A stretch of DNA of 64,000 nt, taken from positions 13,829 through 77,828 of the forward strand of contig JAQWAC010000001.1 in the NCBI GenBank assembly GCA_028707875.1, given 5' to 3'. Below, piece after piece: positions 24,747 through 26,895 of the stretch. The notes under the pieces were generated by a model. The model did no database searches. It had not been told where the DNA came from and saw nothing but the letters and a program-made list of their open reading frames with translations. Made by a program: the position numbers and the translations under genes. The stretch's first letter is position 1. Each line of letters begins with the position of its first letter. Origin of the DNA: Candidatus Peribacteraceae bacterium (GTDB taxonomy: Bacteria > Patescibacteriota > Gracilibacteria > Peribacterales > Peribacteraceae).

Positions 24747-26792
24747 ATGGCATCCGCAAAACAGCAGTACACCGCAGAGAACATTCAAGTTTTGGAGGGA
24801 CTGGAACCCGTCCGCAAGCGCCCCGGCATGTATATCGGCTCGACGGACGAACGCGGTCTCCATCACCTTGTCTATGAGATCGTGGACAACGCGATCGACG
24901 AGGCGATGGCCGGACATTGCAACCTTGTCATTGTCACTCTTCACGATGACGGCTCCGTGAGTGTGGATGACAACGGTCGTGGAATTCCGGTGGATATTCA
25001 CCCGAAGGCGAAGAAGTCCGCCCTTGAAATCGTGCTTACCACACTCCATGCGGGAGGCAAATTCGGCGGTGATGAGAGCGGCTACAAAGTCTCCGGCGGG
25101 CTCCACGGCGTGGGTTCCTCCGTCGTGAACGCGTTGAGCGTCAAAATGCATGCGGAGGTCTACCGCGACGGAAAGGTCTGGATGCAGGATTACGAACGCG
25201 GCAGGCCGGTGGCCGATGTCAAGGCCAAGGGTGAAACCAAGAAGCAGGGGACGCTCATCCGCTTCTGGCCGGACAAGGAGATTTTCGACACGCTCGATTT
25301 CTCTCTGGTCGTCATCATGAACAGGTTGCGTCAGCAGGCGTACCTCACGCGCGGCATCACGATCGGCCTGCTCGACGAACGCGAGAAACGGTCGGAGGAG
25401 GATCAGAAGTATCCGCGCCTGTATCGTTTCCACTTCGAAGGGGGCATCTCCGCCTACGTGCAACATCTCAATGACTCCAAGGATGTCATCGGCAAGCCCA
25501 TTTGGTTCGAAAAGGAGGTTCCCGAGGGATTCGTGGAGGTTGCTCTGCAGTACACGCGGTCCTTTCAGGAACTGGTGGCGAGCTTCGCGAACAACATTCA
25601 TACCACGGAAGGCGGACATCACATGACCGGTTTCAAGGCCGCGATCACCCGCACCATCAATGCCTACGCCCGCACGCAGAGCATCCTGAAGGAGAAGGAC
25701 GAGAACCTCACGGCCGATGATGTCCGCGAGGGGCTCACGGCGATCATTTCCGTGCGTCTGAAGGATCCGCAGTTCGAGGGTCAGACCAAATCCAAGCTGG
25801 GCAATGCCGAGATGAAAACCGCTGTGGAGACCGTTGTGAATGAGAAGCTCGCGGAATACTTTGAGGAGCATCCGGGTGAAGCCAGAGATATCGTTGCCAA
25901 ATGCACCCTTGCCGCCCGAGCCCGTCTGGCCGCCCGCGCCGCCCGCGATTCCGTCATCCGCAAAGGTGCGCTTGACGGCATGACGCTGCCGGGCAAACTG
26001 GCGGACTGCTCCAGTCGCGATCCCAGCGAGTGCGAACTCTTCATCGTCGAGGGCGATTCCGCGGGGGGGTCCGCCAAGCAGGGTCGCAATCGTGAGTTCC
26101 AGGCGATCCTGCCGCTCCGCGGAAAGATTCTGAATGTGGAGCAGTCACGTCTGGACAAGATGCTTGTGAATAACGAAATCAAGTCGCTGGTCATCGCACT
26201 TGGCGTGGGTATCGGGGAAGTGAAGGACTTCAGCAAGCTCCGCTACCACCGTGTGGTGATCATGACCGATGCCGACGTCGACGGCGCGCACATCCGCACG
26301 CTGCTGCTGACGCTTTTCTTCCGCTACTTCCCGGAGCTGATGGAAGCGGGCTTCATTTACATCGCCCAGCCGCCGCTCTACAAGATCAACAAAGGCAAGG
26401 AGGTGATGTATGCGTACTCCGATGAAGAGAAAGATAAGATCTTGAAGGAGTGGGGCGTCAAGCCCGAGGAACTGGAGATCAAAGATGAGGATGAGACGGC
26501 GCCCGTGCCCGAGGAGAATGAGGCGCTTACCAAAGGCGCCAAGGCCAAGAAAGATGAGCCGAAGAAGACGGCACGCGTGAATATTCAGCGCTACAAAGGC
26601 TTGGGAGAAATGAATCCCGAGCAACTGTGGGATACCACGATGAATCCTGAGAGCCGCAGCCTGCTTCGCGTCACGATGGAGGATGCCGAACAGGCGGATG
26701 CCACCTTCACGACGCTCATGGGTTCCGAAGTCGCCCCGCGCAAAAAATTCATTCAGACGCATGCCAAGACCGTCAAAAACTTGGATATCTGA
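24747..26792 (+). CDS. gyrB: DNA gyrase subunit B
   Basis: [42 protein letters not shown], canonical C-terminus KNLDI. Start at MASAKQQY. Confidence 0.95.
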
Positions 26793-26856
26793 TCCCTATT
26801 CCTTTGAAATTGTCACCCCGAGCTGTCGCGAGCATCGCGAGCGACAAGACGAGGGG

Positions 26857-26895
26857 CAGACGCACGCCAAGACGGTGAAGAATCTGGATATATGA
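26857..26895 (+). repeat. relic second copy of the gyrB 3' terminus ([12 protein letters not shown]-stop)
   Basis: 39 nt, with 32 of 39 identical to 26754-26792. All 7 differences are synonymous. Out of frame with gyrB. Confidence 0.8.

Follow-up and report, generated by a model that had tools for sequence, protein, structure and literature searches.

A hairpin-associated duplication of the gyrB 3′ end in a Peribacteraceae genome and the class of gene-end scars to which it belongs

Organisation of the duplicated gyrB end

The window analysed here is a stretch of 64,000 nucleotides from a Candidatus Peribacteraceae bacterium, corresponding to contig C46:13829-77828 of a metagenome-type assembly of 1.32 Mb in 74 contigs (genome G000). 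Its gyrB gene, identified by Pfam matches to HATPase_c, DNA_gyraseB, Toprim and DNA_gyraseB_C, has a 3′ end that is present twice (Table 1). The terminal 12 codons and stop codon of the working gene (copy 1) recur beyond a short spacer as copy 2, with 32 of 39 bases identical and the same translation, while the offset of 103 nt places copy 2 in another frame. All seven differences are synonymous, six of them lying at codon position 3 and the other being a TTG/CTG exchange. The initial annotation of this DNA had reported the recurrence and its purely synonymous divergence, and both its coordinates and its translations agreed when re-read. The similarity between the copies has sharp limits, with a left edge before CAG and a right edge 1 nt past each stop codon, and the duplication lies far beyond chance.

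Copy 1 and the spacer make up an inserted segment whose left boundary is ambiguous across 8 nt (CAGACGCA) common to both copies. The spacer bears the left arm and core of a dispersed hairpin repeat, of which the usual right arm, CGACAA, is absent, its place being occupied by copy 2. The loop of the outer core contains a nested inner hairpin, and the loop region of the latter (26827-26843; CGC-GAGC-ATCG-CGA-GCG) is a second copy of the core motif, a core nested within a core; the gyrB spacers of genomes G128 and G164 likewise have a hairpin within the core loop. The TCGCGA-GCA-TCGCGA sequence and the TGTCGC/GCGACA stem, both noted in the initial annotation, map to this inner hairpin. An alternative representation of the core is a stem containing tandem G.A/A.G mismatches (CCCC-GA-G...C-GA-GGGG). 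An Rfam scan of the gyrB spacer returned no match, its fold was no more stable than those of shuffled sequences (z = -1.2), and no canonical terminator or promoter was found at the gyrB locus.

Table 1. Features of the gyrB locus (positions in the window)
Feature	Positions	Strand	Remarks
gyrB	24747..26792	+	681 aa counted from MASAKQQY; open frame from 24606; terminal 12 codons and stop now derived from the insert
Copy 1, working gyrB end, probably imported	26754..26792	+	reads CAGACGCATGCCAAGACCGTCAAAAACTTGGATATCTGA; stop TGA
Inserted segment, 103 bp	26754..26856	+	replacement end plus spacer; empty-site analogue with the same layout, a 78-bp insert, in G212 versus G023
64-nt spacer	26793..26856	+	left arm of the dispersed hairpin repeat, TTGTCAC (26810-26816); outer core CCCC-GAGC...CGA-GGGG (26816-26856)
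Nested inner hairpin in the outer-core loop	26824..26846	+	TGTCGC/GCGACA stem
Copy 2, relic of the ancestral gyrB end	26857..26895	+	reads CAGACGCACGCCAAGACGGTGAAGAATCTGGATATATGA; stop TGA; +1 frame; outside any credible gene
Small membrane open reading frame (ORF), 70 aa	26892..27104	+	MISDFL...SGCM, then stop; conserved neighbour 3′ of gyrB; no Pfam family
hisS	27219..28592	-	Pfam tRNA-synt_His, HGTP_anticodon; convergent with gyrB; limits the locus

Copy 2 is the native gyrB end

Comparison of the gyrB 3′ region in related genomes identifies copy 2 as the native gyrB end, and copy 1 together with the spacer as the newcomer, upholding the earlier proposal of a 103-bp insertion that brought its own gyrB terminus. 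The assignment rests on an empty site, on synteny, on closeness to the nearest relative and on a codon pattern. The empty site is clean in G212, relative to which its congener G023 carries an insert of exactly 78 bp; the single gyrB end of G212 and the DNA downstream of it align to the G023 relic and to the sequence after that relic. In the sister genus, represented by G014, a homologue of the small membrane ORF (81 aa, beginning MFSDYL and ending SGCM at its stop) lies 13 nt past an uninterrupted gyrB, and its alignment with the ORF of G000 scores 83 versus 29.6 +/- 5.1 for shuffled sequences. Against the nearest relative, G016, the G000 relic shows 5 differences and copy 1 shows 9 (counted by eye). 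The lysine codon near the gyrB terminus is AAA in 9 of 11 hairpin-adjacent ends versus 6 of 40 plain ends (P = 7e-5), while relics mostly have AAG, as plain ends do (counted by eye); the copy 1 codons GTC AAA AAC TTG resemble hairpin-adjacent ends and differ from most uninterrupted gyrB ends. The overlap of the small ORF's ATG with the relic stop (ATATGA, at 26892) was confirmed. From it the initial annotation had suggested that copy 2 may be the ancestral and translationally coupled end; the ancestry stands on the synteny and the empty site, whereas coupling, still possible, is unsupported by the 13-nt gap in G014.

Divergence between the copies

Over 13 protein-coding pairs of copies, 88 codon differences are synonymous and 13 non-synonymous, and the nucleotide differences are distributed 23/13/97 over the three codon positions. 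A neutral relic standing beside a constrained gene would be expected to show about 36% synonymous changes among its differing codons, a value far from the one observed (binomial P = 2e-26). Synonymous divergence approaches saturation, with up to 13 of 15 codons differing at an amino-acid identity above 90%. The two carA tails, FIKLL and FMKVMGGGEEK, each closed by a stop codon, have an in-frame length difference of 18 nt, and relatives have carA tails of several lengths; the alaS tails read PVAIEVAKEQ and PKEIEVAKEG before their stops, where relatives have P.EIEVA.E. In both genes the copies appear as different, equally plausible orthologous tails. The codon counts and these tails bear out the claim of the initial annotation that both gyrB copies evolved as real gene ends.

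The G023 pair has six differences, none of them non-synonymous, and is too diverged, and too purely synonymous, to have originated in place after the split from G212. As judged from the sequences, the two ends probably diverged as working genes in different lineages. In 10 of 11 genomes the copy and the relic have matching variable gyrB residues, and these residues are those of the host genus, which indicates that the donors were fairly close relatives, at roughly congener distance; by comparison, the gyrB genes of the congeners G023 and G212 are 88% identical and the two copies within G023 are 82% identical. Similarity between copies ends at the stop codon or, in tRNA genes, at the CCA, as expected if donor and recipient share the gene alone.

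Further scars in the same genome

A whole-genome search for protein tails repeated past their own stop revealed sufB as a second clear case, in which NRLIELEMEGSVG and a stop codon are followed by NRLIEMEMEGSVG and a stop codon, with serine TCC/AGC and arginine AGA/CGC switches between the copies. The gyrB and sufB spacers have in common the motif CC[CT]GAGC-N-CGA[AG]GGG, the core of the dispersed hairpin repeat, which has 16 short-loop copies in G000; a reversed version of the pattern, used as a control, has no match, and 370 kb of DNA from other bacteria contain no core. A locus list was compiled from a direct-repeat test of the flanks of each hairpin copy and from a second scan that did not presuppose a hairpin, the latter finding just a handful of duplicated gene ends in the 1.32-Mb genome. 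The two together yield at least nine scar loci. The 3′ end is duplicated in gyrB (39 nt), sufB (44 nt), alaS (about 75 nt), guaA (24 nt), carA (about 85 nt), a macB/ftsX-like permease gene (19 nt), tRNA-Tyr and tRNA-Leu (19 nt each, exact), and the 5′ end in a fused POR gamma-alpha gene (about 33 nt). The initial annotation had named a search for other duplicated gene ends as a check on its proposal; the gyrB scar is one member of a class, both genome-wide and family-wide, that is tied to a dispersed hairpin repeat.

The layout of the scars is constant, the working gene end being followed by a short spacer, a hairpin and a relic that starts at the hairpin's 3′ foot. The inserts measure 54-190 bp and contain no gene, while the duplicates extend over 19 to about 85 nt and are 3-30% diverged in an orthologue-like manner. 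The stretch identical at the left boundary of the insert ranges from 2 to 16 nt, with no motif common to the targets. Among the candidates of the hairpin-independent scan, C1, C17, C30, C47-, C68 and C46-32598 were dropped as tandem paralogues or internal repeats, and C32 is doubtful.

The two tRNA scars (tRNA-Tyr, C47:2261-2400; tRNA-Leu, C25:22742-22851; loci L022 and L023) display a conserved GAGAAGTTTA motif ahead of the core. Left of this motif, 8-9 nt are exactly complementary to the T-stem/acceptor strand of the relic, and the relic therefore makes a long stem closed by the hairpin. An Rfam scan of eight further element loci gave nothing above threshold, the tRNA-Tyr element showing a weak similarity to RtT (RF00391; 27.8 bits). 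RtT RNA corresponds to the tyrT-distal repeats of Escherichia coli, which also contain tRNA-Tyr 3′ ends.

Recurrence across Peribacteraceae

A second gyrB end was present in 5 of the 20 Peribacteraceae loci first examined versus 0 of 80 loci of other bacteria. A survey of 200 species-level genomes of the family, from 84 genera, placed the gyrB scar in at least 13 genomes of 13 genera (G000, G003, G008, G022, G023, G046, G077, G086, G128, G164, G175, G176 and G180). The carriers are scattered in the gyrB tree, and each has closer relatives without the insert, among them the insert-free congeners G143 (of G003) and G212 (of G023). A single ancient insertion, vertically inherited, is ruled out by this scatter, by the insert-free congeners, by joins that differ and by relic residues that are genus-specific. 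Other genes of G003 and G023 have the same scar layout, and the POR 5′-end duplication is also found in G016 and G023 and, in decayed form, in G014, with spacer hairpin families that differ among these genomes.

The scars differ in their state of preservation. Nearly identical pairs occur in G175 (2 differences in 33), in G180 (3 differences) and at locus L116 of G003 (55 of 57 identical), and are taken as young events, while decay is seen in the G008 relic, which has lost its stop codon, in an alaS relic, which is frameshifted, and in the POR relic of G014, which carries indels. For G000 itself, the best match in a metagenome scan for a close relative had 63% amino-acid identity, and the family survey has this genome alone in its genus.

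The hairpin repeat and the join

Complete copies of the hairpin repeat have conserved arms, TTGTCAC...CGACAA; the scars that bear the motif keep the left arm but have the relic where the right arm would stand. Relics were seen on one side only, and always of one hairpin strand (at least 15 of 15 cases, a gene 5′ end among them); with respect to genes, the cores have no strongly preferred orientation. At gyrB the join falls at QTHAK in G000, at THAK in G180 and G086, at HAK in six genomes and at KDLDI in G164; with the hairpin as reference, joins differ in position by 0-17 nt. Most joins display 3-9 nt common to the 3′ part of the hairpin and the gene, namely TGAA in sufB, GAATCC in tRNA-Tyr, GAAGGAT in G164, where the core's CGAAGGAT overlaps the gene's AAGGAT, and CGCAY in the HAK type, where the right arm of the repeat (GGGCGCAYCG...) resembles the gyrB sequence ACG CAY GCN. 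The first bases of the relics extend the hairpin stem beyond what random genomic 12-mers do (17 loci, Fisher P = 4e-6). A donor-like state, in which a complete hairpin stands directly 3′ of gyrB and no relic follows, is found in G163 and probably in G053.

A variant arrangement was observed in G046 (L216) and G008 (L011), where the gyrB relic begins right behind the working stop codon (FIQT...) and a 20-nt palindrome interrupts it between CAGA and CGCAY. The palindrome is perfect in G046 (CCTGCCTGCC followed by GGCAGGCAGG) and imperfect in G008 (CCTGCCTTCTTGCAGGCAGG); the position it occupies is the relic start site in six other genomes.

Two further dispersed repeat families were observed, a multi-hairpin of about 95 nt, which forms the carA spacer (C58:8863-8957), and a CATGGTGAGC...CGAACCATG palindrome (C50, about 4490-4570). 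Each has many copies in other genera (G016, G023 and others) to which it is 80-97% identical, whereas the protein genes of these genera are only about 75% identical. Such identity across genera implies either horizontal spread or strong constraint, possibly as a DNA-uptake or protein-binding signal.

Recombination enzymes in the genome and the family

Tyrosine recombinases are represented in G000 by a single PF00589 match, an Xer-like protein encoded on another contig (C27:4911-5438); no integrase lies in or beside the 103-bp insert, which has no ORF. Integrase-driven integration was rejected on these grounds, the Xer-like recombinase being the only one genome-wide and the scars having no fixed attachment core. 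No PF00078 match, the signature sought for reverse transcriptase, was detected in G000, and a diversity-generating retroelement was discarded for this reason and because the differences between copies (T/C, C/G, A/G, C/T and C/A) fall at wobble positions and are not adenine-specific. Insertion of a transposon with a target-site duplication of fixed length, identical at birth, was likewise rejected, given the variable lengths and the orthologue-like divergence of the duplicates.

One Y1 (IS200/RayT-like) transposase is encoded in G000, within a 189-aa frame on the minus strand between a comM/Mg-chelatase-like gene and pyrF (C12:4406-4681; PF01797, 31.6 bits versus a cut-off of 23). It displays the HUH motif DHVHMVV and the tyrosine motif YVHYNAWRHG...WPWSS, and no hairpin core lies within about 1 kb on either side of its gene. 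Among 26 related genomes, 18 have Y1_Tnp homologues, which measure about 150 aa and reach 10 copies per genome; in G003, G004 and G014 the Y1 domain forms part of open frames about 1060 aa long.

Origin of the scars

We favour, with some reserve, the reading that segment 26754-26856 is a recombination scar, formed when a diverged Peribacteraceae gyrB end and the hairpin behind it were joined to the resident gene by homology on the gene side and illegitimately at the hairpin foot. A fragment from a related, diverged lineage of the family, carrying a gyrB end, its stop codon and a hairpin repeat, would enter the cell, presumably by DNA uptake, and pair with the recipient gyrB. The gene-side join would be made by homologous recombination, and the non-homologous tail would be joined at the hairpin's 3′ foot, 12 codons ahead of the recipient's own stop, by microhomology or blunt end joining, that is, by homology-facilitated illegitimate recombination (HFIR). 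The recipient's original end would thereby be displaced and become an untranslated, slowly decaying relic. In this manner a module of gene end plus hairpin could pass between lineages with the essential gene unharmed. The scar targets (gyrB, sufB, alaS, guaA, carA, the macB-like gene, POR and the two tRNAs) are all highly conserved, as expected under import, for which homology with the foreign DNA is needed. Import would also explain the orthologue-type divergence, the loss of similarity past the stop codon, the variation in lengths and joins, the microhomology at most joins, the patchy distribution, the empty site and the decay of relics. Natural competence has been documented in Saccharibacteria of the candidate phyla radiation (CPR) (PMC10633639, PMC10187176), and recombination that is homologous on one side and illegitimate on the other is an established route in competent bacteria (PMC3240628).

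Several points weigh against import. Competence is known from Saccharibacteria, not from Peribacteria themselves. The search for a donor of the G000 segment found none, nor could a foreign tract be resolved upstream of copy 1; the relatives are about 20% diverged, and a sliding-window analysis of divergence along the gene, of weak power at 12-25% divergence, gave no usable signal. Homologous recombination at about 18% divergence is inefficient in model bacteria. The gyrB join of G000 has essentially no microhomology and no stem extension, and was therefore essentially blunt. The fixed relic side and hairpin strand are poorly explained by random one-sided recombination, the same gene ends are scarred in many genera, and the AAA codon is common to hairpin-adjacent gyrB ends across genera. 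The fixed side and strand, the repeated targets and the AAA codon keep alive an alternative in which the hairpins are themselves mobile.

According to that alternative, which we regard as possible, if rather unlikely, the hairpins are non-autonomous mobile elements worked by Y1 (HUH, RayT/IS200-like) transposases, and gene end plus hairpin form miniature modules that restore the end they interrupt. The top strand would be nicked at the hairpin 3′ foot and transferred to a target that pairs with the 4-9 nt left of the hairpin, the other side being resolved by homology. Y1_Tnp is widespread in the family, and the G000 protein has the HUH and a RayT-like tyrosine motif; the join is always at the 3′ foot of one strand; pairing between the left flank and the start of the relic exceeds chance and is exact over 8-9 nt at the two tRNA loci; the gyrB site between CAGA and CGCAY was used in six genomes and holds the palindrome in the G046 and G008 relics; repeats are far more similar across genera than genes are; and core is nested inside core. 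The G000 Y1 gene, however, has no hairpin repeat within 1 kb. The joins vary in their distance from the hairpin, that of gyrB in G000 occurring nearly without pairing, and the carA scar has a different hairpin family. Known Y1 elements (IS200/IS605, REPINs) act without target duplication and without gene ends (PMC3116915), and the diverged copy 1 would still require a foreign source. Put more broadly, and just as tentatively, Peribacteraceae and probably other CPR bacteria may harbour unrecognised gene-less mobile modules of 50-200 bp, each made of the terminal or initial codons of a conserved gene, or of a tRNA end, together with a hairpin repeat, that pass from lineage to lineage and integrate strand-specifically at the hairpin 3′ foot, with Y1 possibly as the catalyst and left-flank pairing as the guide, the gene end serving as both homing address and patch. 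A purely local event is improbable. Here the hairpin would have entered just behind the stop codon and duplicated a long target segment of variable length; the copies, at first identical, would have diverged afterwards, with the relic kept gene-like by repeated homologous overwriting from insert-free relatives or by selection. The near-identical pairs of G175, G003 (L116) and G180 suit this reading, as do the end of the duplicate at the stop codon, as though the insertion point were fixed, the description of insertion with long target duplication in competent bacteria (PMC2853133), and the relics of G046 and G008, which stand directly behind the working stop like a tandem duplication. Highly diverged pairs almost without non-synonymous change are nevertheless impossible for a neutral relic; the G023 insert, absent from its congener, already shows six differences, all synonymous; the carA and alaS tails differ, the former by its in-frame length difference; and the relics have no consistent reading frame or start codon.

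Two other explanations concern the reality of the duplicate and its expression. Collapse or chaining of two strain variants of the gyrB end during assembly might be suspected in a metagenome-type assembly of 74 contigs, yet it is highly improbable, as a read is longer than the entire 142-nt structure, the copies differ and enclose a specific hairpin repeat, and the layout recurs at at least nine G000 loci as well as in at least 12 other genera, assembled independently and in part represented by near-complete genomes of 4-10 contigs. We also give very little credence to translation of copy 2, whether by +1 frameshifting, by ribosomal bypassing of the kind known from phage T4 gene 60, or within a small ORF of which it would form the C-terminus, although such a role would account for its conserved coding capacity. 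The +1 frame of G000 is indeed open over 70 codons (26683-26895), running from the gyrB end through the spacer into the relic and closing with the relic's 12 residues, and the stop codon has a hairpin behind it; T4 gene 60, the best-known example of bypassing, likewise encodes a topoisomerase subunit. Among the genomes, however, relics occupy frames 0, +1 and +2 relative to gyrB, and in-frame stops precede the relic in G023 and G003, which together effectively exclude translational recoding; the open frame of G000 is judged a product of chance, because relics elsewhere sit in other frames or behind stops. Some relics have decayed, the same layout is found at tRNA genes and at a gene 5′ end, and the product would just repeat the protein's own end.

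Relation to known systems

A close precedent for import of a gene end is prophage e14 in the icd gene of E. coli K-12, where the insert supplies a replacement 3′ end and the icdC relic lies on its far side; the icd and icdC ends differ mostly synonymously, with a few conservative substitutions, and on loss of the insert the gene and the relic recombine into a functional chimera (PMC13626634). The likeness to e14, and to phage 21 in the same gene, is that the end of a housekeeping gene is replaced and the original end left as a relic. In contrast to e14, a 15-kb prophage with an integrase and an att core, the G000 scars are about 100 times smaller, have no gene and no nearby integrase, join variably and affect many target genes in one 1.3-Mb genome. 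Similarly, the exact duplication of 19 nt of tRNA-Tyr and tRNA-Leu 3′ ends past an insert recalls the genomic islands that tyrosine integrases place at tRNA and tmRNA genes. The tRNA scars differ in having inserts of about 75 and 110 nt, no integrase, and a relic that abuts the hairpin and is complementary to the hairpin's left flank.

HFIR, which accompanies natural transformation or conjugation, combines homology at one end with microhomology or a blunt join at the other (PMC3240628). It would fit an anchor in conserved genes, joins that vary in position and mostly show 3-9 nt of microhomology, and a copy 1 of foreign origin. The scars are distinguished by their recurrence, small size and fixed relation to a hairpin repeat, and they would combine gene-end-restoring integration with one-sided illegitimate recombination. 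HFIR is rare in laboratory selections and usually accompanied by deletion of recipient DNA, and we know of no systematic natural footprint of it that is tiny, cargo-less, always at one strand of a hairpin repeat and duplicates gene ends. Insertion with long target duplication was reportedly described by Nobusato et al. 2000. As characterised by Furuta et al. (2010), it leaves variable target repeats of more than 30 bp, often over a gene 3′ end, without a transposase or integrase, and most cases come from naturally competent species (PMC2853133). Its cargo consists of kilobases of restriction-modification genes between repeats 94-100% identical, whereas the Peribacteraceae scars have a hairpin as their only cargo and repeats down to about 70% identical with purely synonymous differences. 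The REP/BIME and REPIN-RAYT systems comprise short GC-rich hairpins between genes, often past stop codons, and a single-copy RayT gene (PMC3116915). G000 resembles them in its dispersed extragenic hairpin family and its one Y1 (RayT-like) gene among housekeeping genes, and differs in that this gene is not flanked by repeats. To our knowledge, REPINs have not been reported to duplicate or replace gene ends, and a limited literature search found no published account of miniature gene-end-replacing scars with a hairpin repeat. The recurrence of the scars points to a so far undescribed, routine route by which short foreign DNA is patched into Peribacteraceae genomes.

If import is the correct reading, the scars, with about ten in a 1.3-Mb genome and the gyrB scar in about one in eight family members, would form a natural and abundant record of DNA intake from diverged relatives by ultra-small, uncultivated CPR bacteria, each of them preserving the donor and recipient versions of a gene end together with the exact join. 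How often recombination crosses species and genus borders in CPR, how one-sided it is, and what part the ubiquitous hairpin repeats and the unexplained Y1 transposases play could then be addressed with sequence data. Should the hairpin be an active, strand-specific recombination site, it would represent a new kind of mobile element of minimal size, with possible use as a tool for inserting DNA at essential genes in a scar-tolerant manner. Gene calling, phylogenetic inference and strain typing can be misled by relic ends and recoded termini of marker genes (gyrB, guaA, alaS and tRNAs).

Minor observations

Two copies of a longer unit, GCGAAGGCAGGCGAGTTTAT-core-CCTGCCTGGAGCGCAAC, were observed 1.4 kb apart on contig C5 (33649-33667 and 35074-35092); the core lies inside a GGCAGG/CCTGCC stem in both, and a flanking gene-end repeat was not detected at these units. 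On the plus strand of C12 (about 37890-38085), a perfect 93-nt direct repeat extends over the end of an 87-aa open frame and restarts 2 nt past its stop codon, an arrangement that may reflect either tandem duplication in the very recent past or a fault of the assembly.

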